In this document: piece after piece, positions 16,687 through 40,678 of the stretch
Position numbering within the stretch: the stretch's first letter is position 1
Layout of the letters: each line of letters starts with the position of its first letter
DNA from: Pseudomonadota bacterium
GTDB taxonomy: Bacteria > Myxococcota_A > Polyangia > Polyangiales > JAKSBK01
Assembly: GCA_022361155.1 (NCBI GenBank)
Contig: JAKSBK010000210.1
Location: 2,364-66,363 of the forward strand
Length of the DNA stretch: 64,000 bases
Direction: 5' to 3'
Program-made: the position numbers and the translations under genes
The notes under the pieces: generated by a model
Database searches by the model: none
Seen by the model: the letters and a program-made list of their open reading frames with translations, nothing else
Told to the model about the DNA's origin: nothing

Positions 16687-16755
16687 ACATATGCAGAGTG
16701 ACCCACAGGCGCTGGACTTGTCATGGAGCGGATTTCGGACGAAGGAGACACTCAC

Positions 16756-19700: not shown

Positions 19701-21066
19701 GGACGGCCGCCCCGATCTCATGCTCGGTGGCGATGGCGAGGCGTATCTGTACTTTGGCGCTCGGGCCGGAGATCGCTTGCCGGATGCCCCATCGGTGACT
19801 TTCACGGGCTTGCCGGACTCGATGACAGTCCAGCATGGAGCCTTCGGTGAGCAAATCGCGGGCCTCGGAGACTTCAACGGGGACGGTTGTGCTGATTTTG
19901 CTATTGGAGAAGGTGCTGGGCTCGGCTCAACGCAGGGCGGGGACATGGGACGAGTCTATGTGTTTTTCGGGCGTGATGCTGATCCAGGCAAAGCCTGTCC
20001 CGATGAGTGGCCCACCGCTATCGATGTACCGGCGGGTTGCGGCGTGGCGGGACGGGTTGACGTGTGTTTGGTATCGAGTGAGTCCCTTGCCGTGCTGGGT
20101 GGGCGGGTAGACGCTGTCGGTGATTTCGACGGCGACGGTCTCTCGGACCTGGCAACGAGTGCCCGATTCGCCAGCGGGTTCGAGGGCAGAGTCTACGTTG
20201 TGCTGGGCCGGAAAGCCTATGCATCCGGTACCAGGATCGTCGTTCCTGGAACGCCCGGAATGGCGGGGAATGACCCGGATGGCTTTGTTTTCGCCGTTTC
20301 CGGAAGGTACCAGTTCGGTTGGGGGGTGACGGGGGTCGGTGACTTGCAGGGTGATAACCGTTCCGACCTCGTAATCACGACTCTGGGTCGTGGCCGAACC
20401 GGTACCCCCTGGTCGGTCTACCGTGTATTTGGCCAGACCTACAGTGCTGGCGGCGGGCTGGTCGCCGTGGATCAGAGTGAGCTGCTCGAGATCGCTTCGG
20501 GACCGCCAACTGGTAGCCCAGTTCGGGTCGCAGCGTTGGGTGACGTTGTCGGCGGTTCTGGACCCGATCTGGGGCTGTGGTTCCTCGCCGGGGGCCTCGG
20601 TCAGGTGCAGGTGTGGCCCGGCGACGGGCTCGGAAGCTTCGACCCCAGCCAAGCGGTTGTGCTTGACAACGCGGGCGGCGCCAACACGGATTCCCTCGGC
20701 GTGGCGATGGCATCGGTTCGCGGCCCCTTTTCCTCGAACGCAGACATTGATGGTGACGGCAAGGGCGAGCTGTTCATCGGTAGCGCCGGGTTGGGTGGAC
20801 ATCCCGGTGCCGGGCTGCTGTTCTATGCCGACAACGTCGCGTCGGGCGCACAGTCCGGCGCCATCGGCACAGACGTGGCTTCTGTTAGGCTACGGCATGA
20901 CATGGCGGGCGAGCCCCTAATAGTTGCGGGCAATTCCAGCGACAATCAGAACGTATGGGGCTTCGTCCAGTATGTAGGTGATATAAACGGCGACGGTTTC
21001 CCTGATCTCGCATTCGGCGACCCCAAATCGAACTCGGGTCGCGGCCGGGTGCAGATACTCTACTAG
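16756..21066 (+). CDS. Giant (about 1436 aa) putative lipoprotein with Ig-like repeats and a C-terminal FG-GAP/VCBS beta-propeller
   Basis: GAAGGAG SD 8 nt before ATG 16756 and a lipobox-like LFCGC. Repeated GDxNGDGxxD motifs (GDVNGDGRPDL, GDFNGDGCADF, GDFDGDGLSDL, GDINGDGFPDL). Confidence 0.75.
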   Translation: MVIGQVPGVDRRAAAVKQLDRPAAREAGVIWTLASVLFCGCSVSDDGAGMLTIVSPAPNQMFTPADDISPDQPGFQTLVAVTSTNLTRQARIVLHVDAGDPVLARLLEGVGAPDDAGNAMIMVTLPAGTHELSAETFLGSVRSAGVVYTAPDLGGGPPIGPGGCPTALFVTPLPPAMGATQRTLGPGSDTVGEGCGMTFATTVALATNALDGVEGQLFVNGTPGPVVAAAGGALVFDDVELGNRGTFPNLLEVRFNLAGVVCDALRYPGDLLVDCEGASCELTAPRTDTGFLNLEDDVSSMPGFQTDFQVTTDSSAANQPVRLIVDGNFNTPPMMNPVVNGPQAIATFGGVSLEDGGHTVFAECRDDAGNLTRSAAGRWVVDTVPCTLGIDSPAAGTSFIETDDVNSMQAGLQVELEGTLMGDGCTGVRAAECTGIEGVPFQTHDGSRSVSANVTLSSNRMQSLCLEVRDVARNVAQERVAVERQSDAPKLAFAVPDPQNPDALRFNSAGNTYEGQSYVADLDPTTPACDVRFEVLCDEVGRPVTLHVEATGVQLSGGSADCVAAPAMPMGFRGRATFASVAVAAGTSPTVNIVARQQGGRLEGQSSPLTLNHDCQPPDVLFYEQDPVDGALCQAFTPSTSGGEITKNVRVFSPVAALELKIFRTDGMTPAVPVFTSTTPVPSGASQFLFPNVSFQNGGTYSVVVEATDGAGNLGITPPCQVQVVDIPTLAITAPMNGAALDASGGCAGTGMFNVQVEATTDAAAGSLVEIQIADLPVETTSVGVSGDISECVAAKQGEVDIRVRVSDTARGGAFAEQVLTVTIDSLPPPNPITDLTLLDPTTTPATEDDNPRAGTVRFRWTAVDDAAMGQPLAGYELRCVVAPGQIADEASWSAARSYTLGVNPAAGGNVQEANVSGFRMGEPVRCILRGVDGGGQLTPLPAASDPGYNVPVALSFRDHQVQLAGSARLGMRMVALGDVNGDGRPDLMLGGDGEAYLYFGARAGDRLPDAPSVTFTGLPDSMTVQHGAFGEQIAGLGDFNGDGCADFAIGEGAGLGSTQGGDMGRVYVFFGRDADPGKACPDEWPTAIDVPAGCGVAGRVDVCLVSSESLAVLGGRVDAVGDFDGDGLSDLATSARFASGFEGRVYVVLGRKAYASGTRIVVPGTPGMAGNDPDGFVFAVSGRYQFGWGVTGVGDLQGDNRSDLVITTLGRGRTGTPWSVYRVFGQTYSAGGGLVAVDQSELLEIASGPPTGSPVRVAALGDVVGGSGPDLGLWFLAGGLGQVQVWPGDGLGSFDPSQAVVLDNAGGANTDSLGVAMASVRGPFSSNADIDGDGKGELFIGSAGLGGHPGAGLLFYADNVASGAQSGAIGTDVASVRLRHDMAGEPLIVAGNSSDNQNVWGFVQYVGDINGDGFPDLAFGDPKSNSGRGRVQILY

Positions 21067-21411: not shown

Positions 21412-21978
21412 GACCTTGCTGTTAACGATGCTAACGATGAGAGGGGTTTCTTCCTTGCTCTGTCCAAGCTGAGCGCTCCGCTGCGCCTGCAAGGAAACAG
21501 CATGATGCCTTGGGTGTGGCCGGGAACACGGGTGTCCGTTGTTGCCTGCAGACCGGAAGAGTTGCGAAAGGGAGACGTGGCTGTCGTGGCGCTGACGGGA
21601 GCGCTGCGGGTCCACCGGGTGATCAGCCGAGACCCTGGAGCTGGTTGGATCCTCCGCGGCGATGCGTTGGCTAAGTGCGATCCCAAACACTACAGCACTC
21701 GGATCGTTGCGCGAGTGCCCGGTACGGTGCTCTTTCGGTGGCATTGGCCGACGGCGCCCCCGGCGCTTGGCTGGGCCGTCAACCGTGCGATACTGTTTTC
21801 CACACGTGCCTCACGACCGATCTACCGGCGCTTGCGCAGAATTCGTGCGAGAGCGGAAGGGCTTGAGCGTGAAGTGCTCGCCTGCCGCAACACCACGAGA
21901 ATCAAGCGTCTCGTTTCGCGGGGGACAGCAGTCCGAGCAGCAGCCAAAGATAGCGCTGGTGCAGAACATCGCTGGTGA
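21325..21978 (+). CDS. S24/S26-family serine peptidase, SipW/archaeal-type signal peptidase-like
   Basis: LQGNSMMPWVWPG (catalytic Ser) and ALRVHRVIS (His of S26B-type enzymes). The only in-frame ATG/GTG starts upstream of the Ser motif (21241, 21268, 21325) lie inside repeat copy B. Confidence 0.6.
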   Translation: MLGIFRGGWTQPAVVGSGETHGGAASVRGDLAVNDANDERGFFLALSKLSAPLRLQGNSMMPWVWPGTRVSVVACRPEELRKGDVAVVALTGALRVHRVISRDPGAGWILRGDALAKCDPKHYSTRIVARVPGTVLFRWHWPTAPPALGWAVNRAILFSTRASRPIYRRLRRIRARAEGLEREVLACRNTTRIKRLVSRGTAVRAAAKDSAGAEHRW

Positions 21979-23293
21979 AACCGACCAACATTAGCGCACA
22001 AGTGGTCAGCCACAGCGTTCGATCTTCAACGTCACAGCGTCGGCGCCAGAGCGTCGCAAGTAGCCCCACAAGACTGATCACACCGAGTATGCCGGCCTCG
22101 GCGGCGAGCCCGAGGTAGGTGTTGTGTGGGGTAGCATATTCGTTGGTGCGAGGGTCGGGTCCGAGCTGATAGCGTTTGGCCACAAAACGGAGCGCGTGCC
22201 CGCCGTAGTTTCCTGGCCCTACTCCGAACCATGGGTTCTCGAGGAAGGCTGCGATGGAGGTCCTGTTGGCGAGCATGTACCGGGTCAGTGAACCACCGCG
22301 ATCGTGTCGAGCTCTAAACACTACGCAGCGCTTGCGCTCCTGGAAGAAGGCGACCTGATGCTCCAGGTCGATCCGCGCACAGTCTACTGTGCGGCGGTCT
22401 GAGTCGGCTTGTGGCCAGGTATCGATTCCCAGGTTCATGATCCAGCCAGCGCCCGCCAGTCCCACAGATGCTGCGAGCGCCGCTGCCTTCACGAGTCCAG
22501 GAGCTGGATTCTTGGCCATCCTCAGAGCAACAGCGCCTGCTACGATAGGGGCCCCCAACCAAGCTCGGCTGAAACTGAGCACTTCGGTGACGCATCCAAG
22601 CGTGAGCCAGGGGCCTAAGCGCCGGGCGCCGTGGCCCGCGCCTAGCAGGGTAACGAGGGCGGTCCAGACTAGCGTGTACTCACCCATGGCCTGGGTGTCT
22701 GAGCCGAAACTTCCGGTCAGCCTCGGCCACATGTCGAACAACGGATGCCGTCCGATGTGAACGAACGCTCCTCGAGGCAGCAGTTGGGTCGTGCAAGACA
22801 GCAGGTAGCCAAGCACGGACGCAGTCAGGGCGAGGGTGCCTCCCGCCACCGCCGCGCGGATCACTAGACGGTCTCGCCTGTCGGCAGCCAGCGCCGCGCA
22901 GGCTGCAGCAACGTAGGGGAGGCCCCAAACCTTCAGGGTGCTGCGTAGGCTGCTGCCGTTCACCAGGCCGCTTGCCGTCAGGGCCAGTGCCATCGCGACG
23001 CAAGCGATGAGCAGCCGTGATCCTACGAGCCTGTCGCGGTTCCTCCAGAGCAACGGCGCGAAAGCAGGCACCGCGAGCAACATCGCAAGGTCGGCGAGTC
23101 GCAGACCTAATGCCCTGTCAACACGCCAGTGCCCGATGCCCTCGAACGGAATCAGGAAGGCGTATGCGGACAGGCCCCAGCTGCCCAGTCGAGCGCCAAT
23201 TCCGTTGCACGGACGTGGGCGTGTCGGGTCCAGCACGGCAAGGAGTGGGTCACGCGACCTCAACCTAAAGCCAAGAGAAAGGAGGCACATCAT
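21902..23293 (-). CDS. O-antigen ligase (Wzy_C)-like polytopic membrane protein
   Basis: About 10-12 hydrophobic helices with a large loop. ...ATPHNTYLGLAAEAGILG... is typical of the O-antigen ligase/Wzy_C domain. Confidence 0.65.
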   Translation of the reverse strand: MMCLLSLGFRLRSRDPLLAVLDPTRPRPCNGIGARLGSWGLSAYAFLIPFEGIGHWRVDRALGLRLADLAMLLAVPAFAPLLWRNRDRLVGSRLLIACVAMALALTASGLVNGSSLRSTLKVWGLPYVAAACAALAADRRDRLVIRAAVAGGTLALTASVLGYLLSCTTQLLPRGAFVHIGRHPLFDMWPRLTGSFGSDTQAMGEYTLVWTALVTLLGAGHGARRLGPWLTLGCVTEVLSFSRAWLGAPIVAGAVALRMAKNPAPGLVKAAALAASVGLAGAGWIMNLGIDTWPQADSDRRTVDCARIDLEHQVAFFQERKRCVVFRARHDRGGSLTRYMLANRTSIAAFLENPWFGVGPGNYGGHALRFVAKRYQLGPDPRTNEYATPHNTYLGLAAEAGILGVISLVGLLATLWRRRCDVEDRTLWLTTCALMLVGFTSDVLHQRYLWLLLGLLSPAKRDA

Positions 23294-23306: not shown

Positions 23307-25471
<2,165 letters not shown>

Positions 25472-25475
<4 letters not shown>

Positions 25476-25774
25476 GAAAGCACCCGGAGGCGTCGCGGCC
25501 GCTCGGGGCTGGACACCTCGAGCGCTGCGATCTCGTGACGCCGCAGCGACAGCCTCGAACCGCGCACCTCGAGCTCGAGCGGGTCGCCAAGCGGGGCGAC
25601 CTTGGCGACCCGGATCCGGGTCCCCGGCACCAGTCCGAGCTCCATCAAGCGCCGGCGGAAGGCACGGGATCCCTTGATCCTGCGGATCGACGCCGCTTGC
25701 CCAAAGGGCCAAGCCAGCAAGGAACAGCAGGCCTGCCCCGCATGGGGTGCTTCGGTGTGGGGGTCGTGGGCCAT
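25472..25774 (-). CDS. feoA: FeoA-family protein
   Basis: RRLMELGLVPGTRIRVAKVAPLGDPLELEVRGSRLSLRRHEA SH3-like FeoA motif. Confidence 0.85.
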
Positions 25775-27995: not shown

Positions 27996-28766
27996 TCAGC
28001 CATAGCGCCCTTCAATGTAGTTGGCGGTTCGCTTGTCCGTGGGATTGAGGAACAGGGTCTCGGTGCGAAGGTGCTCTATCTTCTCCCCCAGCAGCATGAA
28101 GACACACTCGTCGCTGACACGCCGGGCCTGAGCCATGTTGTGGGTGACGATCAAGATCGTGTAGCCGCCGCGAAGCTCCCTGATCAGCTCCTCCACCCGC
28201 TGGGTGGCCGCAGGATCAAGCGCAGAGCAGGGCTCGTCCATCAGCAACACCTCGGGCTTCAGCGGCAGCAGGCGGGCAATGCACAGCTTCTGCTGCTGCT
28301 CGAGAGGAAGGGTGGTCGCCCGCGCACGAAGCTTGTCCTTGAGGTCGTCCCATAGCCCGACTCGGCTCAGCGCCTGCTCTACGTAGGCCTCCGTTTCGCC
28401 TGACTTCGAGCGTTGCCCTCGATGAATCCTGAGTCCGAACACGATGTTCTCGGCTATGGACAGCGGAAGTGGGTTCGGCCGTTGGAAGACCATTCCGACC
28501 CGCCTGCGAAGCTCGATCAGATCGACCTCCGGCGCATAGATATCGTGGCCGAGTATCTGCACCGAGCCCACCGTACGCACGCCTTCGATGCGTTCGTTGA
28601 TCCGGTTGAAGCAGCGCAGCAGCGTGGTCTTTCCGCATCCAGAAGGGCCGATGAGCGCGGTGACCAACCCGTGCTTGATATCGAGGCTTACGTCCTTGAG
28701 CGCCTGAAAGTCCCCGTACCACAGGCTCAGCTCGCTGGCCCGGATTCCTTGCCGCACGGCCGTCAT
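27996..28766 (-). CDS. pstB: Phosphate ABC transporter ATPase PstB paralog 2 (degenerate signature motif)
   Basis: Canonical Walker A GPSGCGKTT, Q-loop VGMVFQRPNP, Walker B LLMDEP and H-loop IVTHNM. The ABC signature reads TLPLEQQQKL instead of LSGGQQQRL. Confidence 0.85.
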   Translation of the reverse strand: MTAVRQGIRASELSLWYGDFQALKDVSLDIKHGLVTALIGPSGCGKTTLLRCFNRINERIEGVRTVGSVQILGHDIYAPEVDLIELRRRVGMVFQRPNPLPLSIAENIVFGLRIHRGQRSKSGETEAYVEQALSRVGLWDDLKDKLRARATTLPLEQQQKLCIARLLPLKPEVLLMDEPCSALDPAATQRVEELIRELRGGYTILIVTHNMAQARRVSDECVFMLLGEKIEHLRTETLFLNPTDKRTANYIEGRYG

Positions 28767-29530
28767 CCGAACACGCCGTGCACGTACTCGAAGGTTCGGC
28801 GGTCAGCCGGTGTCCGGCCGAACACATCGTTCGTGGCCCCGACCTCCACCAGCTCGCCGTTCAGCAGGAATGCCGTTCTGTCGGCCAAACGCCGAGCTTG
28901 CTGCACGAGATTCGTCACCAGTATGATGGCCATTCGCTCGCGCAACTGCTTGAGCACGTCCTCGATTCGCATCGTGGTGACCGGATCGACGGCGATCGAA
29001 AACTCATCGAGACAAAGCACTTCGGGCTCGTGCGATAGCGCTCGCGCTATGGTGAGCCGTTGCTGCTGGCCGCCCGACAGCCGGGTTCCCAGGTCGTCGA
29101 GCCGGTCCTTGACCTCGTCCCACAACGCCGCCTGCTCGAGGCAGCGTTGCACGAGCCGGCCGATCTCGGTCCGGTCTCGAGGCCCGGCCATGCGGGGAGC
29201 AAAAGCAACATTGTCGAAAATCGACATGGGCAGTCCCACGGGTAGCGGCGCCACCATGCCGATACGACGCCGCAACATGGAGACGTTGCGCATCCTGTAG
29301 ACGTCTTCCCCGTCCAAGCGGACGGAGCCCTCCACCTTCACGTCCGCAATCCGCTCCAGGGTGCGATTGAGCACCTTCAGCAGGGTCGTCTTGCCGGACC
29401 CGGCGGGTCCTATGACGCCCAGGATCTCGTGAGCCCTCAGGTCGAGAGAGACCCTGTGCAAGGCCACCTTCGGGCCGTAGCTGACGCTGAGACCATCGAA
29501 CGCCACCTTGCTCACCACCTTGCTCACCAT
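28763..29530 (-). CDS. pstB: Phosphate ABC transporter ATPase PstB paralog 1 (canonical signature, degenerate Q- and H-loops)
   Basis: Walker A GPAGSGKTT and signature LSGGQQQRL. The Q-loop reads IGMVAPLP (no Gln) and the H-loop ILVTNLVQQA (His to Asn). Confidence 0.85.
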   Translation of the reverse strand: MVSKVVSKVAFDGLSVSYGPKVALHRVSLDLRAHEILGVIGPAGSGKTTLLKVLNRTLERIADVKVEGSVRLDGEDVYRMRNVSMLRRRIGMVAPLPVGLPMSIFDNVAFAPRMAGPRDRTEIGRLVQRCLEQAALWDEVKDRLDDLGTRLSGGQQQRLTIARALSHEPEVLCLDEFSIAVDPVTTMRIEDVLKQLRERMAIILVTNLVQQARRLADRTAFLLNGELVEVGATNDVFGRTPADRRTFEYVHGVFG

Positions 29531-30405
29531 TTTCTGCGGCTCCTGAGGTGGATTCGGAAGGCGATCGAGGCGGCGTTGACGGACAAGACGACGGCCAGCA
29601 GGGTCAGGGCGGTCGCGTAGGGAATGGCCTCGGGCACGTTCGGTACTTGGGTCGAGATCGTGAACAGGTGCATCGACAGCGCCATGCACTGGTCGTTGAC
29701 CGATTCAGGCAGCAGAGGCAGAAAGAAGGCGGCCCCGGTAAACATGATGGGGGCGGTTTCACCGGCGGCCCGCGAGACTTGGAGGATCACGCCGGTGAGG
29801 ATGCCGGCGATCGAGTTTGGGAGCACGACATGCCGGATGGTCTGCCAGCGAGACGCTCCCACGTTCCAACAGGCTTCCCGAAAGGCCATGGGGACGGCGG
29901 CAAGCGCTTCCTTGGTACTGGCGATGATGACGGGCAGCGTCATGATCGCCAGGGTCAGAGCCGCCGACAGAATGCTGGTCCCCAGGCCGAGAAAGAGCAC
30001 GAAGGCCCCCACCCCGAACAACGCGTGCACGATCGAGGGCACACCCGCGAGATTGATGATGGCAAGGTTGATGATCCGGGTGAACCAGTTATCGCGCGCG
30101 TATTCGTTCAGATACACTGCCGCCAGCACGCCGATGGGTGCGGCCACCAGCAGCGAGACGCCCACGAGCCATACGGTACCGACGATGGCTGGATAGATGC
30201 CGCCTGCCGTCATTCCGCGCATCGGCTCATCGAGAAGGAAGTCGAGGGTCATGGCGGGCGCCCCGCGAACGATCAGCAGTCCGATGATGCCCGTGAGAGG
30301 CAGGATGAGCACGAGGGTCATGCCGAAGAAAACGCCGTAGGCGACCTTCTCCGAGCGGTGCTTGCGCGCTCCTAGCTCAGTGGTGGCAAAGACCGACATG
30401 ATCAT
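29524..30405 (-). CDS. pstA: Phosphate ABC transporter permease PstA
   Basis: 6-TM MetI-like permease with an EAA-like loop (KEALAAVPMAFREACWNVGASRWQT). Position in the pst operon. Confidence 0.85.
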   Translation of the reverse strand: MIMSVFATTELGARKHRSEKVAYGVFFGMTLVLILPLTGIIGLLIVRGAPAMTLDFLLDEPMRGMTAGGIYPAIVGTVWLVGVSLLVAAPIGVLAAVYLNEYARDNWFTRIINLAIINLAGVPSIVHALFGVGAFVLFLGLGTSILSAALTLAIMTLPVIIASTKEALAAVPMAFREACWNVGASRWQTIRHVVLPNSIAGILTGVILQVSRAAGETAPIMFTGAAFFLPLLPESVNDQCMALSMHLFTISTQVPNVPEAIPYATALTLLAVVLSVNAASIAFRIHLRSRRKW

Positions 30406-30462: not shown

Positions 30463-31485
30463 CTACCGCTGACGCACTCCGCGGACTGCGACATCCGCGA
30501 TCAGATTCACCATGAAGGTAAGCAGAAACAACAGCGTTCCCAGCACGAACAGGATCCGATAATGATCACTGCCCCTCGCCGTTTCACCGAGCTCGGCAGC
30601 TATGGTTGCGGTGATCGTGCGAACCGAATCGAGGGGACTCGTGGGGATGTTGACGGCGTGGCCCGTGGCCATGAGGACCGCCATCGTCTCGCCGATGGCC
30701 CTGCCCACGCCGAGCAGCACCGCGGCCAGCAGGCCGTTGCGCGCTGCGGGCAGCAGCACGCGCCAGGTTGTTTGCCAGCGTGTCGCTCCCATGGCCACGG
30801 CCGCCTCGCGGTACGTGTCGGGTACGGCCTTGAGCGCGTCCTCTCCGATCGAAACCATGATGGGCACGCTCATCAGCGCCAGCAGCAGCGCTCCGTTGAG
30901 GATATTGAGGCCGACGGGTGCGTCTAGCAGATCTATAATGATAGGATTGAGAATCATCAAGCCGATGAAACCCCAGACCACCGATGGGATCGCCGCCAGC
31001 AGCTCGACCACGACCTTGAGCGTCTCCTTGAGCCTGCCGGTGCAAAACTCCGAGACGTAGACCGCTGCGCCGAGCCCCAGCGGGATCGCCAGCAGCGTGG
31101 CCAGCAGCGTCACGCTGACCGTGCCGGCGATCAGCGCCAGCGCACCGTAGCGGGCGTTGACTTCGGAATCCGGATACCATGCGGGGCTGCCGACGAACTG
31201 GACGTAGTCAAGCCCACCGAAGAGCAGCGGAGCCGCCTCGCGGAACACGAAGTAGAAGATCCCGAACACGAAGATGACGGCGCTGACACCGCAGGCACGG
31301 ATCACCCACTCGATCAAGAGCTCGCTGGTGCGCCCGACACGCGCTCTGACGCTGCGGGACGGTTCGATCCGGCTACCTCGCGCATCCCCGGCGCCGCCGG
31401 CCGTGTGGTTGCTGCTCAAGATGGCCTCGTTGGGCTCCCATGGCGTCCAGATCGCTGCCCGGCCGTCCGAGACCTGTGGCCGCAT
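30463..31485 (-). CDS. pstC: Phosphate ABC transporter permease PstC
   Basis: Permease with EDALKAVPDTYREAAVAMGATRWQT. Operon context. Start uncertain. Confidence 0.85.
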   Translation of the reverse strand: MRPQVSDGRAAIWTPWEPNEAILSSNHTAGGAGDARGSRIEPSRSVRARVGRTSELLIEWVIRACGVSAVIFVFGIFYFVFREAAPLLFGGLDYVQFVGSPAWYPDSEVNARYGALALIAGTVSVTLLATLLAIPLGLGAAVYVSEFCTGRLKETLKVVVELLAAIPSVVWGFIGLMILNPIIIDLLDAPVGLNILNGALLLALMSVPIMVSIGEDALKAVPDTYREAAVAMGATRWQTTWRVLLPAARNGLLAAVLLGVGRAIGETMAVLMATGHAVNIPTSPLDSVRTITATIAAELGETARGSDHYRILFVLGTLLFLLTFMVNLIADVAVRGVRQR

Positions 31486-31537: not shown

Positions 31538-32428
31538 TCAATGTTGTCTGAGCGTGGCCTTGGTGATCGGGGCGTAGCCCACGCTCTTGACGATCGCCTG
31601 AGCCGCCTGGGACTTCACCCAGCTCAGGTACTTGGCGATGGCACCCTTGGGCTCGCCCAACGTGTACATGTACAGCGCTCGCGCGATCGGGTAGCGCCCC
31701 GACATGGCCGTCTCCATGGTGGGCTCGACGCACGGCTTGCCCGCATCAACCTGCACGCACATGGCCTTGACCGCGCCGGTTTTGTACCCCATGCCGCTGT
31801 AACCGATCGCGCACGGCGTGTGCTGGACCAGATCCACGACGTCCTTGGAGCCTTGCATATCCCGCGAACCGAGCTTGAAGTCCTGGGTCTTGCCAAGCAC
31901 CCATGACCGGAAGAACGCATACGTTCCCGAGTTGTTCTGGCGACCCACCCGCACGATTTCCTGTCCGGCGCATCCAGGGACCTCGACCTTGAGGTCGGTC
32001 CACTTGGTGCAGGTGCCCTTCTCTCCGTAGATGCAGGCCAGCTGCTCTCGAGAGATGTGTGCCATGGGGTTGGATTTGTGTGCGTAGACCGCCAGGGCAT
32101 CGTAGGCGACGGTGTGCTCGACCGGGTCCTTGCCGGTGTTCTTCTTGGCCGCCTTTCGCTCCTTGTCCTTGATCCGACGGCTGGCGTTGGCGATGTCGAC
32201 CGTGCCGTTCATGAGCGCCGCGATCCCGGTCCCCGAACCGCCGCCGGTCACCGCGATCACCACGTTGGAATCCACCTTGCGGTATTCCTCCGCCCAGGCC
32301 TGCGCCAGGTTGACGATCGTATCCGACCCCTTGTTCTGGATCATCGCGCGTTCGCCCCGCCCGCTGCTGCATGCCAGCCCGCCGCTGCATGCCAAGAGCG
32401 CGGCCCCGAGTAAGACGACGTACCTCAT
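31538..32428 (-). CDS. pstS: Phosphate-binding protein PstS (lipoprotein)
   Basis: Signal peptide and lipobox LLACSGG. GSDTIVNLAQAWAEEY...VTGGGSGTGIAAL PBP motif. Confidence 0.85.
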   Translation of the reverse strand: MRYVVLLGAALLACSGGLACSSGRGERAMIQNKGSDTIVNLAQAWAEEYRKVDSNVVIAVTGGGSGTGIAALMNGTVDIANASRRIKDKERKAAKKNTGKDPVEHTVAYDALAVYAHKSNPMAHISREQLACIYGEKGTCTKWTDLKVEVPGCAGQEIVRVGRQNNSGTYAFFRSWVLGKTQDFKLGSRDMQGSKDVVDLVQHTPCAIGYSGMGYKTGAVKAMCVQVDAGKPCVEPTMETAMSGRYPIARALYMYTLGEPKGAIAKYLSWVKSQAAQAIVKSVGYAPITKATLRQH

Positions 32429-33543
32429 GCTTCTTCCTCTCTGCGGTCAGCGCCTATCAAAGCGTCGGTCAATTCCTTGATTCGCGAATCCAAGGATTCG
32501 AAGCATTCTTGATATGCCTTGTGCCGTTCTTCTGCGGAACCGGTTGCCAAGGACGGGTCCGCAATGTCCCAGTGAAGCTGAACCGCATCGTAGGCGACGG
32601 CCGGGCACGTGTCCTCGGCTTCCTTGCACAGGGTCACGATGACATTGAAGTCTTCGATCGGACCCAGCTTGGCGGTCGACTTGGAGCGTTGCCGCGAAAT
32701 GTCGAGTCCCCGCTCCAGCATGAAATCGACCGCTCCTCGATCGAGCGCGCCAGGATCGGTGCCGGCACTTGCGAAGATCAGGTGGCCCGGGGCGACGCTT
32801 CGGGCAATCGCCTCCGCCATTTGGCTTCTGCACGCATTGCGCCTGCAGAGAAACAGCACGCGCACGTCCTCGCGAGGCAGATGGCGCAACACCTCACCGC
32901 GTACAACATACACCGCCTCCTCCGCGATGTTGCAGGCTCGATCGGCCACCCGCTCGATGCGATTGATGAGCCCCACGAGCGCGAATCGCACCGGCAGATT
33001 GACATTCCCCTCCGCGGGCTCGGCCAGCGCCTCGAAGATCTGGGAGTTGAGCCGGTCGACCTGCTGATCGGCGTCGAGGGTTCGAGTCGCAGCCTCCGCG
33101 TCTCCCTGGAGAAACGCTTCTACCGCATCGTCCAACATCCCAAAAGACACCTTGGACATCTGCAGAATGTGCTCGCGCTGGGGAATGTTCCGGGCCTCCG
33201 ACGTGACGGCCACCCTCCTGGCGATAGCTTCCGCATAGTCACCGATCCGCTCCAGCTCCGAGTTGACCTTCGCGACAGCCACGGCAAAGCGCAGATGCGT
33301 CGACACGGGCATGTGGCGCACCAGGAACTCCTGGCACATCCGATCGATGTGGCGCTCCATGACGTCGATCCGGTGATCCCTGAGCACGACCCGGTAAGCG
33401 AGCTTGCGATCACCTTCCGAAAAAGCGCTGACGGCGTCCTTGAGCTGACTCACCACCAGCTTGGCCATGCTGCGGACCCGCTCGCGCAGCGCCGTGATGT
33501 CGCGCTCGAGCCGCTCCTCGAGGTGCAGTGCCGGGCTGTTCAT
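32425..33543 (-). CDS. phoU: PhoU domain fused to an ArsC/LMW-PTP-fold domain
   Basis: N-terminal about 215 aa carry duplicated PhoU helices (ELERIGDYAEAIA / NRIERVADRACNIAEEA). The C-terminus has VLFLCRRNACRSQMAEA (CX5R P-loop) and TLCKEAEDTCP (Cys-X6-Cys as in Trx-coupled ArsC). ATGA overlap with pstS. Confidence 0.75.
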   Translation of the reverse strand: MNSPALHLEERLERDITALRERVRSMAKLVVSQLKDAVSAFSEGDRKLAYRVVLRDHRIDVMERHIDRMCQEFLVRHMPVSTHLRFAVAVAKVNSELERIGDYAEAIARRVAVTSEARNIPQREHILQMSKVSFGMLDDAVEAFLQGDAEAATRTLDADQQVDRLNSQIFEALAEPAEGNVNLPVRFALVGLINRIERVADRACNIAEEAVYVVRGEVLRHLPREDVRVLFLCRRNACRSQMAEAIARSVAPGHLIFASAGTDPGALDRGAVDFMLERGLDISRQRSKSTAKLGPIEDFNVIVTLCKEAEDTCPAVAYDAVQLHWDIADPSLATGSAEERHKAYQECFESLDSRIKELTDALIGADRREEEA

Positions 33544-33556
33544 TTCGGGCTCGAGC

Positions 33557-34048
33557 CTAGTTGATGTCCGGGGATGCCACAACAGCGACGACCGTGCGGC
33601 GGCGTGTCGCGTGCGCCGCGGTTGAGCCGCGGCACCCGAGCGGGGAGGCCGGCCCAGGGCTGCCTCGGACGCAGCCGCGGGTTGGCCCTGGCAGCCGGGG
33701 GCTCCCGCAAGCCATGCCAATGGCCATTACGACGAAGGCGAACCCGACGTCTCGCGTTTCCTTCACGGCATTCCTGAAGCGGATGATGGGCAGCGCGCCC
33801 ACCAGCGAGAAGGCACGCGCCAGGTTGGAGCCTATGATCAACATGATAGGAGCCACGACCATGCCCAGAAGCACCAGGGTTTGAGTGTATGACTGCGAGT
33901 ACGAAATACCCTGGTGAGTGTAGCGATAGATCCATGCGATCATCGACGACAATACGTAGCTGAGCAGCAGCACGATGCCGACATCCGCCAGCGTGAAAGC
34001 GCTGGTGATATCCCTGAACCGCTCCATTTCCTTCAAAAGCTCGTCCAA
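33557..34048 (-). CDS. DUF4956-like membrane protein, apparently C-terminally truncated or divergent
   Basis: The first about 115 aa match the DUF4956 pattern (...GALPIIRFRNAVKETRDVGFAFVVMAIGMACG). The last 48 aa are Arg/Pro/Gly-rich and non-membrane. Confidence 0.5.
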   Translation of the reverse strand: MDELLKEMERFRDITSAFTLADVGIVLLLSYVLSSMIAWIYRYTHQGISYSQSYTQTLVLLGMVVAPIMLIIGSNLARAFSLVGALPIIRFRNAVKETRDVGFAFVVMAIGMACGSPRLPGPTRGCVRGSPGPASPLGCRGSTAAHATRRRTVVAVVASPDIN

Positions 34049-34323
34049 GTGTTCCTCCTACAACCGTATGGCCAGCTCCGAGCGTCGAGCGAGAGAATTC
34101 TGCAAGGTGGCAACGCCGGCGCAGTACTTGCTGATCCTACGCAGCTGACAGCCATGGCGAGTCAGCAGACGGCTCACCCACAGCGGCACGGCCTCGTTGG
34201 CTTTGAGGCCGCAGCCCCCCGGCCCGTCTGGCGCGACTCACTCGAAGAGGCCTATGTAGTGCCTTCACATCGCTACCACCCTAGCGCCCGCCGGCGGCGT
34301 TGGGACCTTCTCGAATGTGCCGT

Positions 34324-34398
34324 GCACCGCATCGACCTGCACCGCATCGACCTGAGCCGCATCGACCTGAGCCGCATCGACCTGAGCCGAATCGAAAC
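34324..34398. repeat. 15-bp tandem repeat x5 (g[ca][ag]ccgcatcgacct)
   Basis: Five head-to-tail units, the last degenerate, lying 124-198 bp upstream of the lipoprotein start at 34522. Confidence 0.9.
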
Positions 34399-34521
34399 GA
34401 AGCCGGGCAACTCGAATCGACTTTCAGGACCGTTGTTCTAGGCTGCGTGTATGCCGCAAACACGACAACTACCTGCCGGGCAAACGTCTTATTCGACCGA
34501 TGGCACCCCATAGTGCAACTC

Positions 34522-35763
34522 ATGAACCAGGTTGGGGTCAGGGTTGAGAGCTCGGTGCGCCGTCCGAGCGCTTGCGCTGCAGCACTGTGGTTGGCGTTCG
34601 GTGCGGGAGGGCTGAGCGCATGCGCGGGACCAGCACCCGAGCTCGCGCCGGACGCGGCCGCTGCAGGCTCTGGAGGCGACGGCGGGGCCAGCCCGGCCCC
34701 GCCCGAGCCCCCTCAACCGGGCCCCGACGCGGGCGGCAGGGAGGGCGGCATGACCTCGCAGGACGCTTCCCAGCCTGCGCTCGAAGCCAGCCTGGACGCC
34801 TCGGCGGATGCCGCCCACGACGCAGGCACGTTGGACGCCCAGGCTCCGCCCGCTCCACGCCCCAGCGACCTGAGGCCCCCGCTGCTGTCGGCGACGTTCA
34901 TCGACCTCAGCGGTGACTACGATCGGAGCACGCGCAGGCTCGCGGCATTGGATTGCAGCGAAACCGCCGCAGCCTCGGGCAAGCCTTGCGTAACAGTCTT
35001 CGGCCTGCCCGCGAGCTCGGAGGCAGGCCCAGCTGAGCTCGGCGCCATCGGGCTGAGGGCCCGAGCGGGGACTCCGGTGCTGGCCGCGATGGCAGGCGTG
35101 GTGGATGGTGTGAGGGCCCGGGGCGACAGGACAAGCAACCAGGTACGTTTCGCGCTGTCGCTCAGACGCGGTCCCGAGAGCGCGTTCTGGCTCGATTACG
35201 CAGGACTCGACAGGCTCGTGGTTGCGCAGGGCGCCCGAGTGCAGGCCGGCGACGTGCTGGGTTACGTGGCCTCGGATGGCGCAGCGCAGCCCGCACACGT
35301 CCGGGTCTCGTTGCGCAAACAGCTCGACCGGGTGCAGCGCCTGTGTCCGCTGCGCTACGCCACCGCGGCATTCAAGACCCGCCTTCAAGCCGCGCTGGCA
35401 GCCAGTCTCGAGGCCTACCCCTCCAGCACCGCGAGCGCGCTGTGCTCGGCGGGTTCGCTGCTCTGCACGCAGGGTGACTGCTCCCGTGCCGAGCACTTCG
35501 TCGCCCGGCTCGGCGACCTCGAGCAAGGCCTGACGATCTACCGCAGCGCCTGCGGCAGCTGTCACGGCGAGCAAGCTCAGGGCGGCATCGGCCCCGACCT
35601 GCTCGATTGCGCCAGCTGCTCGACCCCACTTCGGATGGCGCAGCGCACCCGCATCGACATGCCACCGGAAGGTCGCTGCAGCCTCCGCTGCTCCGAAGAC
35701 GTAGCGACCTTCATCTTCCACAGCTATACCGAGCCGTGGCGGGCCGCGCATCCACAGCAGTAA
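34522..35763 (+). CDS. Lipoprotein with degenerate M23/LytM-like domain and C-terminal cytochrome c domain
   Basis: Lipobox GAGGLSAC. GLRARAGTPVLAAMAGVVDGV is M23-like, but the catalytic His motifs are absent. C-terminal CGSCHGEQAQGGIGPDL...IDMPP is a class I heme c site. Confidence 0.6.
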   Translation: MNQVGVRVESSVRRPSACAAALWLAFGAGGLSACAGPAPELAPDAAAAGSGGDGGASPAPPEPPQPGPDAGGREGGMTSQDASQPALEASLDASADAAHDAGTLDAQAPPAPRPSDLRPPLLSATFIDLSGDYDRSTRRLAALDCSETAAASGKPCVTVFGLPASSEAGPAELGAIGLRARAGTPVLAAMAGVVDGVRARGDRTSNQVRFALSLRRGPESAFWLDYAGLDRLVVAQGARVQAGDVLGYVASDGAAQPAHVRVSLRKQLDRVQRLCPLRYATAAFKTRLQAALAASLEAYPSSTASALCSAGSLLCTQGDCSRAEHFVARLGDLEQGLTIYRSACGSCHGEQAQGGIGPDLLDCASCSTPLRMAQRTRIDMPPEGRCSLRCSEDVATFIFHSYTEPWRAAHPQQ

Positions 35764-37113: not shown

Positions 37114-37560
37114 ATGTTGGCCGAGCAAGATATCCTGCCCTTGCTGAGCGCGGCCGCGGCGGCCCGAAACAATGCGTACGCTCCGTACTCGCGCTTCCGA
37201 GTGGGAGCGGCATTGCTGGCGGGCGAGCGTGTGATTCGCGGCTGCAACGTGGAAAACGCCGCCTATGGAGACAGCATCTGTGCCGAGCGTGGCGCCGTGC
37301 TGGCCGCGGTCGCGGCCGGGCTTAGGGAGTTTCGCGCCCTGGCGGTGTCCACGGAAGCGAGCACGCCCGTGCCACCCTGCGGTAGCTGCCGTCAGGTACT
37401 GCGCGAGTTCTGCCTCGACGACTTCCCCATCGTGATGGGCGCAGCGAGCGGTACCTACACCGTGGTCAGCCTCAACGACCTGTTGCCGGCCGCCTTTACG
37501 AGCCGCTCGCTATCGGACGCTGGCCGGCCCCCGTGGCCGCCCCGCCCGCCGCCGCGCTAG
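37114..37560 (+). CDS. cdd: Cytidine deaminase
   Basis: AYAPYSRFRVGAALL, CAERGAV (zinc and catalytic Glu) and PCGSCRQVLREF motifs. Confidence 0.9.
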   Translation: MLAEQDILPLLSAAAAARNNAYAPYSRFRVGAALLAGERVIRGCNVENAAYGDSICAERGAVLAAVAAGLREFRALAVSTEASTPVPPCGSCRQVLREFCLDDFPIVMGAASGTYTVVSLNDLLPAAFTSRSLSDAGRPPWPPRPPPR

Positions 37561-38951
37561 AACGCCGCCTGCAGCTGCACGCGCAACCGGACGACGCCCT
37601 GGCTCCGCTGCTCGCCGTATCCCCACAACTGGAACAGATCCGCCTGCAACTTGAAGGGGTGGCGCGCGAAATAGTAGCCGCCCACGATGCCCAACTCGTT
37701 CTTGCCCTTGAGCACCGAAGCGTCGCCGCCGGGACGGGTCATCCCGAAGCGTGCCCCGAGCTCCAAAGCCATGCCTGGAAGCAGGTACCCGCCCTGCAGC
37801 ATCCAGCCTATGCCGTCGGCCAGGTCGGTGCCTCCGCGACCATCGCGCCAATAGAAATCGCCGAGCACCGAGAGCCCGGCGTACTTGAACAGCAGATCGG
37901 CGTTGGCATTGTGAAAGGTGTCGTCGTCCGCTTCGGGCGCCCTGCCCTTGATGCCCTGCACGCCCGGTGCGTTCTGCAGGTAGGCATAGCCCACCCCGAG
38001 CGAGAGCCGCGGCTTCGCTGTGCGTTCGAAGTCCGCCTCCGAGTAATCCTTGAACATGCCGAAGGGCAGCAGCTCGAAGCGAATCAGGTACATGAGGCCC
38101 AGGTCACCCGCACCGGGAGTCCTATCCGAGGTGTTGCGGCCCTCGCCGATGTAGACGCCCGCGTAGTAGCGAAACAAGCCCAGGCCGAGTAGATCCTTGG
38201 ACCGGAAGTCGAGTCCCAGATCCCGGTCCAAGGTGAACTCGCCGTTCGTGATGGCGCGATCGACGAACTGCAGATTGCCCGACGAGATCACCCGCTGCCG
38301 GCTGTAGGGCACCTTGTACTGGCCGACGCGCAGGGTCAGGTCGCGCAGGTAGTCGAACGTCATGTACCAGTCGAGCAGCGGCGTGGTGCCTACAACATTG
38401 CTACGCGTCGTGCCCGTCACTCCCATGCCCATGCCCGTGGGATCCTGAAGCACGACCGTCGGCTGCGTCAGGTCTTCGTCGCGCGGCGAAAACGCGAGCT
38501 CGATCTTGAACGTGTTGTGCTTGCCCCACATGTTGCCGACGAACTGCAAGCGCGCGCGACGAATGTGGAAGACCTCCTCGTCGGGTCCCCCGGCTACCCC
38601 TTCGTACTCGTAGCGGAACTGGCCGCGCAAGCGCGTGACCAGAGCAAAGCGTCCGTCCGCACTCTTGAACTCCAAGCCCTTGCCCGGGCGGAAGCGCGCA
38701 CTCGAGGCATCCGCCGGGTGGTCCTTGACGAGATCCCTTTCCCAGCTCGGGGGAGGATTGGGCCCCAAGGCATCCGAGTCGGTTTTCACGTTCGCTGCAC
38801 GATGGGGTTCTGCCAAGCTCGTTCCTGCAGGCGGCGGCGAGCGCTCACCGCTTTCGTGCGCGTGTTGGGCCTGCCCAGCGTTCGCCGCTCCGAGCCACAA
38901 CCAACAGATGGCGGCACCCCTGAGCCGCTGCCTACTTCGATCCAATGACAT
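37557..38951 (-). CDS. Outer-membrane porin, putative phosphate-selective porin O/P family (paralog 1)
   Basis: Signal peptide from ATG 38951 and beta-barrel periodicity. C-terminal RLRVQLQAAF. Highly similar to the adjacent paralog. The family assignment is recalled, not searched. Confidence 0.6.
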   Translation of the reverse strand: MSLDRSRQRLRGAAICWLWLGAANAGQAQHAHESGERSPPPAGTSLAEPHRAANVKTDSDALGPNPPPSWERDLVKDHPADASSARFRPGKGLEFKSADGRFALVTRLRGQFRYEYEGVAGGPDEEVFHIRRARLQFVGNMWGKHNTFKIELAFSPRDEDLTQPTVVLQDPTGMGMGVTGTTRSNVVGTTPLLDWYMTFDYLRDLTLRVGQYKVPYSRQRVISSGNLQFVDRAITNGEFTLDRDLGLDFRSKDLLGLGLFRYYAGVYIGEGRNTSDRTPGAGDLGLMYLIRFELLPFGMFKDYSEADFERTAKPRLSLGVGYAYLQNAPGVQGIKGRAPEADDDTFHNANADLLFKYAGLSVLGDFYWRDGRGGTDLADGIGWMLQGGYLLPGMALELGARFGMTRPGGDASVLKGKNELGIVGGYYFARHPFKLQADLFQLWGYGEQRSQGVVRLRVQLQAAF

Positions 38952-39265
38952 GCTTTTGCGCCTCGTGTACGTCCCGGCGGTCCTGGAACAGTGATTGCTT
39001 AGATAGCTCGGGTAGCTTGGGTAACTCGGTGAGCGAAACCTTAAAACCCAAGTTCCCTCAAAGCTCAAGCTCGGGAAAGTGCAGGGGCATGCACCAATCC
39101 GGACCAATCGAGCCGTACAACGCCCCAGGATACAGGCGTGACCGCCCCGGAGACGGGGAGGGCAGCGAGCACCCCATGCATGCAGGCCCGTACCAACCCG
39201 CATCCGAGCTCACTCGCCGGTTGGCGCGCAGCCCAACAGCGTGGCCGCTCGAGCGTTTCGTAGGC

Positions 39266-40678
39266 TCAGAACGCCGCTTGCAGCTGGACGCGCAGGCGAG
39301 TGTTTTGGCCCGCTTTGCTGCCCTGATTCCACAGCTGAAACAAGTCCGCCTGAACCTTCAGGGGATGCTGTGCAAAGTAGTGGCCCACCACGACGCCGAG
39401 CTCGTTCTTGCCCTTGAGCACGGATGAGCGTCCGCGGGGACGGGTCATGCCGTAGCGAGCCCCGAACTCGAGGGCCGTGTAGGGCAGCAGGTAGCCTCCC
39501 TGCAGCATCCAGCCGTAGCCGTCGGACAGGTCCTCGCCGCCGCGGCCTTTGCGTACATAGAAATCGCTCAGCACGCACAGCCCGGCGAACTTGAACAACA
39601 GGTCGGCGTTGGCATTGTGGTAGTTCACCTGCTGCTTGGGCGTGCTTCCGAGGATTCCTCGACTTCCCGGTGCGTTCCGCAGGTAGGCGTAACCGGCACC
39701 GATGGAGAGCCTCGGCCTGAAGCTGCGCTCGAAGTCGGCCTCGGAATAGTCCTTGAACATCCCGAACGGCAAGACTTCGATACGCCCGAGCGCCATCAAG
39801 CCGAGGTCGCCCGCTCCGCGCGTCTTGTTCGAAGTGTTGCGACCCTCTCCAATGTAAACGCCGGCATAGTACTTGAGCACTCCGAGGCCGAGAAAGTCCT
39901 TGGACCGAAAATCAAGACCCAGGTCTCGATCCAGCGTGAACTCGGCATTGGTGACGGCGCGATCCACGAACTGCAGGTTGCCCGAGGAAACGACGCGCTG
40001 GCGGCTGTAGGGAATCTTGTACTGGCCCACGCGCAGCGTCAGGTCTCGCAGATGATCGAACGTCACGTACCAATCGAGCAGCGGGGTGGTACCCACCACG
40101 TTGGCAGCGCTGTTCGTGTTGTCGGAGAGCGCGATCGGCTGGCGTGCCATGTCGCGCGGCGCGACGGCGAACTCGACTTTGAACGTGTTGTGCTTTCCCC
40201 AGAAGTTGCCAAGAAACTGCAGGCGCGCGCGGCGGATCTGAAACGCCTGCCGGTCCTCGGCACCGCTTACCGACTCGTAGTCGTATAGGAACTGTGCTCG
40301 CAAGCGCGTTATGAGTGCGAACCGACCGTCCCCGGTCTTGACCTCGAGCCCCTTGCCCGGCCGGAAACGCATGCTAGCAGGCGCTGCCGCGTGGTTTCGG
40401 ACGAGCTCGCTCTCCCAGGCCGGTACGAGGTCGTTGCGTTCTTCCGGAGCGGTGCTCGGTTGGGAAACAACACGCTGCGGCGAAGCACCAAGCTGGTCGA
40501 CACCGTGCCGAGCGACACCATACCGAGTGTCAGCACCTTGTTCGGCCCTTGCGAAGAACTGCTGGGCCTTTGCGGAAGGCGCTCCCGCGGTCAAGAACAA
40601 GAGCAACGCGGCGGCATGCGCACGCGCAGGGCTCCCGTTGACTTTGCGAACCTTCGATTGCGTCAGTCGTAGCGGCAT
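39266..40678 (-). CDS. Outer-membrane porin, putative phosphate-selective porin O/P family (paralog 2)
   Basis: Signal peptide ...LLLFLTAGAPSAKAQ. Collinear similarity to 37557-38951 across the whole barrel, with the same C-terminus RLRVQLQAAF. Confidence 0.6.
   Translation of the reverse strand: MPLRLTQSKVRKVNGSPARAHAAALLLFLTAGAPSAKAQQFFARAEQGADTRYGVARHGVDQLGASPQRVVSQPSTAPEERNDLVPAWESELVRNHAAAPASMRFRPGKGLEVKTGDGRFALITRLRAQFLYDYESVSGAEDRQAFQIRRARLQFLGNFWGKHNTFKVEFAVAPRDMARQPIALSDNTNSAANVVGTTPLLDWYVTFDHLRDLTLRVGQYKIPYSRQRVVSSGNLQFVDRAVTNAEFTLDRDLGLDFRSKDFLGLGVLKYYAGVYIGEGRNTSNKTRGAGDLGLMALGRIEVLPFGMFKDYSEADFERSFRPRLSIGAGYAYLRNAPGSRGILGSTPKQQVNYHNANADLLFKFAGLCVLSDFYVRKGRGGEDLSDGYGWMLQGGYLLPYTALEFGARYGMTRPRGRSSVLKGKNELGVVVGHYFAQHPLKVQADLFQLWNQGSKAGQNTRLRVQLQAAF

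Follow-up and report, generated by a model that had tools for sequence, protein, structure and literature searches.

In Escherichia coli, PhoU binds PstB and PhoR and acts as a brake on the phosphate transporter Pst or as a reporter of its activity. The ATP sites of ATP-binding cassette (ABC) proteins are composite, with the Walker side supplied by one subunit and the signature by the other, and in STYX-type pseudophosphatases selection has kept a phosphatase fold whose nucleophilic cysteine is gone and which serves in binding or scaffolding. Binding of PhoU to PstB, PhoR, and metals is on record (Gardner 2014, cited in PMC12976172), and the 2026 PstSCAB structure paper (PMC12976172) still calls unclear the signal by which PhoU/Pst informs PhoR of phosphate sufficiency. 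The arsenate reductase ArsC is known in fusions with ArsR, with Acr3 (Mycobacterium tuberculosis), and with the aquaglyceroporin AqpS (Salinispora), and a review that considers ArsC "predestined" for fusions does not have PhoU among the partners (PMC6205960). Tandem pstB genes within one pst operon occur in Firmicutes (Enterococcus faecalis; Bacillus subtilis pstBA/pstBB) (PMC12096839, PMC11466899), and the tandem PstBs of E. faecalis both have canonical motifs (PMC12096839). Heterodimeric ABC transporters with one consensus and one degenerate ATP site (TM287/288, TmrAB, BmrCD, and CFTR-type proteins), which arise through complementary loss of motifs in the two nucleotide-binding domains, are reviewed in PMC7756269. 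Here we analyze a 64-kb stretch of contig JAKSBK010000210.1 (the window), in which a pst operon opens with a gene encoding PhoU fused to a domain of the ArsC type, a branch of the low-molecular-weight protein tyrosine phosphatase (LMW-PTP) fold.

The window protein consists of two domains joined by a short linker (residues ~216 to 226; coordinates of all features are given in Table 1). A preliminary description of the window had reported duplicated PhoU motifs at the N terminus and a P-loop with a Cys-X6-Cys motif at the C terminus, and both observations held. Pfam PhoU (PF01895) matched the protein in two stretches (E value, 2.7e-39), the N-terminal 217 residues passed the NCBIfam PhoU equivalog TIGR02135 (166.4 bits versus a cut-off of 130.25), and Pfam LMWPc (PF01451) matched residues 229 to 358 (55.6 bits versus a cut-off of 23.2), so that every domain call proposed at the outset was recovered. 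The nearest NCBIfam model to the C-terminal domain was arsC_pI258_fam (TIGR02691), yet the score of 96.2 bits fell below its cut-off of 174.3; the top PDB sequence matches were ArsC2 of D. indicus (8p5n) and ArsC of B. subtilis (1jl3). Residues 229 to 245 read VLFLCRRNACRSQMAEA and residues 304 to 314 read TLCKEAEDTCP; in the HMMER alignment, C233, R239, S240, C306, C313, and D329 correspond to Cys10, Arg16, Ser17, Cys82, Cys89, and Asp105 of B. subtilis ArsC 1jl3. The mechanical open reading frame (ORF) of the fusion gene reaches upstream to a TTG at 33720, and the start was placed at the ATG at 33543 (MNSPALHLEER...) because alignments with homologues of 365 to 380 aa begin there.

Structure prediction agreed with these assignments. 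The AlphaFold2 model of the fusion protein had a predicted local distance difference test score (pLDDT) of 93.7 and a predicted template-modeling score (pTM) of 0.70, with the helices of the PhoU half covering residues 4 to 215. In Foldseek comparisons, the PhoU half matched crystal structures 2i0m, 1xwm, 1t8b, and 4q25 with template-modeling (TM) scores of 0.92 to 0.94, and the C-terminal half matched B. subtilis ArsC 1jl3 with a TM score of 0.91 and a root mean square deviation of 1.5 Å over 135 columns. Phosphatases matched the C-terminal domain worse, both in structure (Wzb and YwlE, TM scores of 0.58 to 0.75 versus 0.91 for ArsC) and in sequence (E values of 0.003 to 0.009 for YwlE/LMW-PTP chains versus 1e-19 to 2e-21 for ArsC chains). 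Foldseek found no PDB chain spanning both halves of the fusion.

The search for the same architecture elsewhere that the preliminary description had proposed returned the fusion from many phyla. Scanned with one genome for each species, GTDB yielded 47 species that carry it, with hosts that include Myxococcota-labeled metagenome-assembled genomes (MAGs), Verrucomicrobiota, Fibrobacterota, Acidobacteriota, and KSB1 as well as Rhodothermia, Magnetococcales, Alphaproteobacteria, and sulfur-oxidizing gammaproteobacterial symbionts. At least 120 full-length homologues of ~310 to 430 aa, with 46 to 62% identity to the window protein, came from independent assemblies, and both Pfam domains were precomputed in 118 of the best 120, the set on which all close-homologue counts below are based. 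Proteins that share the architecture make up more than 120 clusters at 90% identity and at least 145 at 50% identity; 145 representatives of the latter underlie all family-wide counts. When 1.84 billion cluster representatives were searched with a profile, the best 150 were almost all full-length fusions, and the E value was still ~1e-54 at rank 150. Related sequences were mostly from MAGs, no named cultured strain was present among the best 120 Verrucomicrobia-type homologues, and the nearest relative of the window protein that we found was 62% identical. The window protein itself is identical to NCBI MCG8555182.1, which is named only "phosphate signaling complex protein PhoU"; since the database names encountered for family members were plain "PhoU" or "phosphate transport system protein," the fusion is invisible in current annotation.

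Alignment of the 120 close homologues showed E98, R99, G101, D102, E197, and R198 of the PhoU metal motifs to be invariant, with D201 invariant in subgroup A1 and present in ≥90% of subgroup A2. At the nucleophile position of the C-terminal domain (C233), 64 of the 120 have Cys, 25 have Asp, 20 have Ser, and 9 have Gly. Arg239 is retained in 91/120 and D329 in 111/120. The Cys89 equivalent, Cys313, is present in 81/120 and otherwise replaced by a hydrophobic residue (L, V, F, W, or I), and the Cys82 equivalent, Cys306, is found in 3/120, with Ser in 100. The complete catalytic set occurs in the window protein alone. Family-wide, the nucleophile position is occupied by Asp in 107 of the 145 representatives and by Glu in 11 (118 together), with Cys in 12, and the arginine is retained in 21. 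The remaining two subgroups nearly always have Asp in place of the nucleophile and lack the relay cysteines; a Verrucomicrobia-type subgroup keeps D-x2-N-x-C-R-S and Asp-Pro in 34 to 42 of 43 sequences, and the proteobacterial group has usually lost the arginine and Asp-Pro as well.

The fold, meanwhile, has been kept under constraint. Within-group identity is 0.41 to 0.53 for the C-terminal domain versus 0.50 to 0.60 for PhoU, every group retains F231, A243, S259-A-G261, and W325 in the core, and structure prediction for an Asp-type member gives a fold with a pLDDT of 91.6 and TM scores of 0.85 to 0.88 to ArsC structures. Loss of the nucleophile from a maintained fold argues that, in most of the family, the ArsC-fold domain is a putative pseudoenzyme with a noncatalytic purpose, the window protein, which keeps Cys233, being excepted. 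Judged by these residue patterns, the conserved role of the fusion family cannot be arsenate reduction or phospho-relay catalysis, and either activity is possible for the window protein itself. The phospho-relay role offered in the preliminary description thus fails as a conserved role, the catalytic residues being lost family-wide. The arrangement of a thioredoxin-coupled ArsC recognized there is true of the window sequence but recurs in full in none of the other close homologues (1/120), and the concern raised there, that the catalytic residues might not be conserved on proper alignment, applies to most homologues but not to the window protein, which has them all.

In a neighbor-joining tree, the window protein was nested inside the Myxococcota-type subgroup, among neighbors that carry Ser at position 306; given this nested position, Cys306 is most simply a single-base, lineage-specific Ser-to-Cys change. 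Arg-Arg at residues 234 and 235 is unique to the window protein among the 120, 96 of which have Asp or Glu at 234. From these alignments, no other member of this largely degenerate family resembles ArsC as closely as the window protein does. Of three other accounts of its residues, the first two are not supported and the third was rejected. A basal position with the original ArsC triad does not fit the nested placement and the Ser306 of the nearest neighbors. Gene conversion from a true arsC gains no support from a C-terminal domain that is 35% identical to B. subtilis ArsC and no outlier in its subgroup (mean, 31%; maximum, 41%). A functional relay role for Cys313 across the subgroup is at odds with its replacement by hydrophobic residues and with its lack of co-retention with Cys233 (42/64 with the nucleophile versus 39/56 without).

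The operon also encodes two PstB paralogues, 42% identical to each other, whose motifs are degenerate in complementary ways. PstB1 has an intact LSGGQQQR signature, with an altered Q-loop (GMVAPLPVG; Gln to Pro), Walker-B region (LDEFSIAVD), and H-loop (VTN; His to Asn). PstB2 has intact Walker A, Q-loop (GMVFQRPNP), Walker B, and H-loop (VTH) motifs, and LPLEQQQK replaces its LSGGQ signature. The degenerate PstB1 pattern was found in 44/44 related loci across all phyla sampled and the PstB2 pattern in 40/40 full-length copies, a 41st (L013) being disrupted, whereas single PstBs beside an unfused PhoU or a catalytically intact fusion are canonical in every motif. Given the composite architecture of ABC sites, this complementary loss predicts that one ATP site is competent and the other dead: the catalytic motifs of PstB2 would form the competent site with the signature of PstB1, and the Q- and H-loops of PstB1 would form the dead site with the signature of PstB2. 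PstB1 and PstB2 are accordingly best described as a predicted obligate heterodimer with one dead ATP site. A Pirellulales MAG (L076:6400-8700) has an asymmetric PstB1 (VTN, LSGGQ) and PstB2 (LTLEQQQR) together with an unfused PhoU in last position; the PstB asymmetry is therefore wider than the fusion, and this locus may be an intermediate form.

The fusion gene is the first in the operon, followed by pstS, pstC, pstA, pstB1, and pstB2. That PhoU comes first rather than last, as initially noted, was confirmed in the window and proved to be conserved among relatives, and the reported ATGA overlap with pstS could be read directly from the sequence (...GAAGAAGCATGAGGTAC..., in which 32425-32427 are the stop codon of the fusion and 32428-32426 the ATG of pstS). 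Across ~45 loci of many phyla searched by tblastn, the fusion was always accompanied by pstS-pstC-pstA and two PstB paralogues. The order fusion-pstS-C-A-B1-B2 is that of Myxococcota-type, Verrucomicrobia-type, and related genomes; in a proteobacterial and Rhodothermia group, the fusion is second (pstS-fusion-C-A-B1-B2); and loci with an unfused PhoU have the textbook order, with a single pstB and phoU last. A Verrucomicrobiota MAG (L016:528-9051) has a canonical pstA-pstB-phoU just upstream of a fusion-type operon, and both kinds of Pst therefore coexist in one genome. phoB and phoR adjoin the operon in ~21/46 loci (in L024, PhoB at 328 bits and PhoR at 401 bits both exceed their equivalog cut-offs), which marks these operons as Pho-regulon transporters. 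Upstream of the operon in relatives, there are Pho-box-like (Y)GTCAC direct repeats with 11-bp spacing (L081:9187-9354, L003:4740-4770, and L006:7915-7945).

Searches of the source genome covered the 64-kb window. No phoBR was found within 19 to 44 kb of the operon in the window, and the Pho box pattern YGTCAC-N4-YYGTCAC had no match in the window with one mismatch allowed. Scans of the 27.5- to 34.6-kb region found no sigma-70-like promoter site and terminator-like sites only at chance level, and an Rfam scan of the whole window gave no hits. The 64-kb window contained no ars, acr3, arsR, or thioredoxin gene, no second phoU, and no second LMW-PTP gene, and the WCxPC motif was absent from all of its reading frames.

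Catalytically intact relatives do exist. The full catalytic set with a canonical ArsC P-loop was present in 5/145 representatives, and 2 more differed solely at the Cys82 position. These intact fusions (e.g., P0180, P0133, and P0269) are 26 to 36% identical to the window protein, were seen in metagenomes only, and have P-loops of the form C[TIV][GH]NS[AV]RSQMAE; where context was available, each closes a pstS-C-A-B operon, following directly on its only pstB, which is canonical. In a rough neighbor-joining tree of PhoU domains, the fusions of asymmetric operons form one clade and the intact fusions fall at two or three places among unfused PhoUs, a distribution suggesting that the intact fusions probably arose by independent fusion events. 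In an Anaerolineaceae MAG (L077:637-1984), a separate intact arsC (CTHNSARSQ ... VCDRADQQCP ... EDP) begins 8 nt past the phoU stop within a pst operon. A stand-alone arsC also lies near phoU and pstB at L059:7968-8426. The link between PhoU and ArsC is recurrent, and since fusion and adjacency have both arisen repeatedly, tethering an arsenate reductase to PhoU seems advantageous. The coupling of arsenate detoxification to phosphate uptake suggested in the preliminary description is therefore sound in principle, with comparative support from the intact fusions and phoU-arsC pairs, but it does not describe the conserved role of the window's fusion family, which probably began as such a coupling.

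We consider it reasonably likely that the fusion, whose conserved job the residue patterns show not to be arsenate reduction, is mainly regulatory, a PhoU regulator with a noncatalytic ArsC-fold accessory domain. The PhoU half would dock on the heterodimer of PstB1 and PstB2, as well as on any PhoR that is present, and in doing so could throttle import and report transport status. The ArsC-fold half would be noncatalytic and accessory, offering a surface for docking or a P-loop that senses an oxyanion. In subgroups that keep the Arg and Ser, the domain could still bind an oxyanion; in the Arg-less majority, the oxyanion hole may simply be occupied by the conserved Asp, which would leave the domain as a docking surface. 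The family probably descends from a catalytically active PhoU-ArsC fusion like those that end canonical pstSCAB operons, and the window copy may additionally reduce arsenate leaking in via Pst, as a lineage-specific trait.

Several observations weigh against this regulatory interpretation. At the residue level, the window protein has everything by which a thioredoxin-coupled ArsC is recognized. Elements of the P-loop tend to be kept or lost jointly, in counts not corrected for phylogeny: R239 is present in 59/64 homologues with Cys233 versus 32/56 without, S240 in 64/64 versus 28/56, and the second P-loop cysteine, C238, in 51/64 versus 17/56. A working P-loop is therefore plausible in roughly half of this subgroup, among them the lineage of the window protein. 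Oxyanion sensing is unlikely as a general role because the arginine is gone in most members. The models establish no fixed interdomain geometry, as confidence in the linker is moderate to low and the pTM is 0.61 to 0.70 in the two models, with a linker pLDDT of <50 at residues 219 to 221 in the second model (that of the Asp-type member). All trees, moreover, are quick neighbor-joining trees without support values.

Of the competing explanations, the one that survives best is that the C-terminal domain of the window protein is a working thioredoxin-coupled arsenate reductase, tethered through PhoU to the cytoplasmic face of Pst, where it would immediately reduce arsenate slipping in through the importer, and that this is its main selected function. 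The equivalents of Cys10, Arg16, Ser17, Cys82, Cys89, and Asp105 are all present with the exact C-x6-C spacing, the fold is that of B. subtilis ArsC (TM score, 0.91), residues 307 to 312 between the relay cysteines are helical, and the uniquely basic P-loop CRRNACRS resembles CKRNSCRS of Synechocystis ArsC. Intact PhoU-ArsC fusions and adjoining phoU-arsC pairs recur in other lineages, and ArsR-ArsC, Acr3-ArsC, and AqpS-ArsC offer precedents for fusion (PMC6205960). We nevertheless judge this explanation unlikely. The full set occurs in just 1/120 close homologues, the most parsimonious origin of Cys306, given the nested lineage, is a Ser-to-Cys change of one nucleotide, and Cys313 acts as a hydrophobic core position that is not co-retained with the nucleophile. 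The ArsC equivalog score (96) is below its cut-off (174), ars, acr3, arsR, and thioredoxin genes were not found in the 64-kb window, and there is no relative above 62% identity in which conservation of the residues within the lineage could be seen.

Considerably less probable is a cysteine redox switch, in which a C233-C238 or C306-C313 disulfide tunes the PhoU brake on phosphate uptake during oxidative stress. LMW-PTPs form a protective disulfide between their two P-loop cysteines, the window protein has four cysteines in and near its P-loop, and C233 and C238 are co-retained (51/64 versus 17/56). The cysteines are not conserved family-wide, however, Cys238 is kept without its partner in the Asp-type subgroup, which suggests a structural role, and no redox genes were found in the context. 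Slightly weaker still is the case for an active LMW-PTP-type phosphatase (Cys233, Arg239, and Asp329) acting on a Pho-signaling partner or another phosphoprotein, with PhoU resetting the pathway. About half of the subgroup keeps the Cys/Arg/Ser P-loop jointly with the Asp-Pro general acid, Pfam LMWPc matches over threshold, and phoB and phoR adjoin many related loci; but the P-loop flank CRSQMAE is of the ArsC type, as are the best matches in sequence and in structure, the tyrosine and arginine phosphatases Wzb and YwlE match at TM scores of 0.58 to 0.75 versus 0.91, no phoBR lies within 19 to 44 kb of the window operon, and the nucleophile is missing in most of the family, so that this is not a general mechanism. 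A sequencing or assembly frameshift that joined separate phoU and arsC genes, a possibility raised in the preliminary description and favored by some Chloroflexota that do have the two genes separate and adjoining, is effectively ruled out by comparative data, as hundreds of independent assemblies from many phyla share one continuous reading frame and the linker sequence RGEVLRHxPRxDxRVLF is conserved.

A bolder version of the regulatory interpretation would make the fusion and its paired ATPases an unrecognized, multiphylum class of phosphate importer whose regulator is built in, in which the ArsC-derived P-loop senses an oxyanion (phosphate or arsenate) or docks on the degenerate PstB site and the window copy has kept or regained full arsenate-reductase chemistry. 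We regard this combination as improbable; if it were true, PhoU would directly read cytoplasmic phosphate or the state of the transporter, and in the organism of the window a single protein would both control the entry of phosphate and render harmless the arsenate that comes in alongside.

Full-text searches of the literature found no description of the PhoU-ArsC fusion or its pseudoenzyme character, nor of an asymmetric PstB heterodimer. We therefore class the architecture as a variant of the Pst-PhoU system that is present in public databases and for which we found no literature description. It constitutes a large natural family (at least 145 clusters at 50% identity) in which PhoU has gained a domain derived from an oxyanion-handling enzyme. 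The obligate-looking PstB heterodimer and the fused PhoU provide asymmetric, separable parts for dissecting PhoU-PstB coupling. Relatives display a series from enzyme to pseudoenzyme, running from a separate intact arsC beside phoU through intact fusions and Cys-retaining intermediates (the window protein's group) to Asp forms, and they give independent genomic support for a physiological link of phosphate import with arsenate reduction.

Table 1. Features of the pst operon, the fusion protein, and related loci (positions are those of the window unless a locus is named)
Feature	Coordinates	Strand	Basis
PhoU + ArsC-fold (LMW-PTP) fusion gene	32425..33543	-	372 codons + TGA; first in operon; ORF and translation
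PhoU domain, residues 1 to ~220	32884..33543	-	Six-helix bundle with both E/DxxxD metal motifs (E98..D102, E197..D201)
ArsC-type LMW-PTP-fold domain, residues 227-372	32428..32865	-	Pfam LMWPc, PDB sequence matches, Foldseek
P-loop C233-R-R-N-A-C238-R239-S240 (CX5R-S)	32824..32847	-	Aligned to Cys10..Ser17 of B. subtilis ArsC
C306-x6-C313, equivalents of relay cysteines Cys82 and Cys89	32605..32628	-	Alignment; spacing same as in ArsC
D329, equivalent of general acid Asp105 (DP motif)	32557..32559	-	Alignment
pstS, PstS-family phosphate-binding protein	31538..32428	-	Pfam PBP_like_2; TIGR02136, 224 bits versus cut-off of 206.6
pstC, permease	30463..31485	-	TIGR02138, 281.9 bits, above cut-off
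pstA, permease	29524..30405	-	TIGR00974, 257.1 bits, above cut-off
pstB1, ATPase paralogue	28763..29530	-	Motifs; PstB model, 275, below cut-off of 343
pstB2, ATPase paralogue	27996..28766	-	Motifs; PstB model, 329, below cut-off of 343
Tandem phosphate-selective porin (Porin_O_P) genes	37557..39203, 39266..40678	-	Pfam PF07396
Intact PhoU-ArsC fusion loci	L086-L088:4343-9116; L085, L089-L092		Last gene of canonical pstS-C-A-B

Within the operon, the N terminus of PstS (MRYVVLLGAALLAC...) resembles a lipoprotein signal by eye. The mechanical ORF of pstB1 extends to 29689, and its likely start is the ATG at 29530, as indicated by an AGGAG 9 nt upstream and by homologues of 254 aa. The two Porin_O_P paralogues are 67% identical and lie 4 to 7 kb from the pst operon; from this proximity, they probably assist phosphate uptake, and a single phosphate-acquisition locus may include them and the operon. 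The gene next upstream of the fusion encodes a DUF4956 protein (33557..34048, minus strand) and has a good AGGAGG ribosome-binding site and a TTG start. It covers just positions 5 to 89 of the 169-position Pfam profile, its last ~45 residues look nonhomologous, and it is probably a truncated gene abutting the start of the operon. In some close relatives, the upstream position is occupied by a PhoU_div (PF01865) gene, which is absent from the window. Farther upstream, a 15-bp tandem repeat (34327..34395; consensus, CCGCATCGACCTGAG; 4.6 copies; 94% matches) sits in the first 100 nt of a mechanical ORF (34300..35763, plus strand) with M23-peptidase and cytochrome-c matches. Elsewhere in the window, a 1,447-aa ORF (16723..21066, plus strand) contains FG-GAP repeats and a bacterial Ig-like domain, has a third-position GC content below that of its neighbors, and adjoins an O-antigen-ligase-like gene (21902..23293) and feoB (23307..25712).

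Compared with known systems, the window fusion resembles canonical PhoU (E. coli; Pseudomonas aeruginosa 4q25; Aquifex aeolicus 1t72) in its two repeats, six-helix bundle, E/DxxxD motifs, and location in a pst operon. It differs in the extra 145-residue ArsC-fold domain, in its position at the head of the operon (second in one subgroup) rather than at the end, and in its pairing with two nonidentical PstBs instead of a PstB homodimer. The C-terminal domain is 34 to 35% identical to thioredoxin-coupled ArsC proteins (Staphylococcus aureus pI258, B. subtilis 1jl3, and D. indicus ArsC2 8p5n) and has the same fold; unlike them, it is fused to PhoU, lies outside an ars operon, scores below the equivalog cut-off, and has catalytic residues that are not conserved in its orthologues. 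The intact terminal PhoU-ArsC fusions share its domain order and pst setting but have a canonical P-loop, the last position in the operon, and a single canonical PstB. In the known ArsC fusions, the partners are arsenic-specific sensors or arsenite exporters, whereas here the partner is the regulator of a phosphate importer.

The ATPase pair stands in a similar relation to its closest counterparts. The tandem PstBs of Firmicutes are adjacent, as they are here, but the pair described here is complementary-degenerate in all loci examined. Most degenerate-site heterodimers are exporters of type I in which the transmembrane domains are fused, while the present case is a type I phosphate importer with free-standing ATPases and a dedicated PhoU-type partner. 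Finally, in comparison with STYX-type pseudophosphatases, the fusion family consists of bacterial domains of the ArsC subfamily with Asp in place of Cys, and the window copy still has the cysteine.

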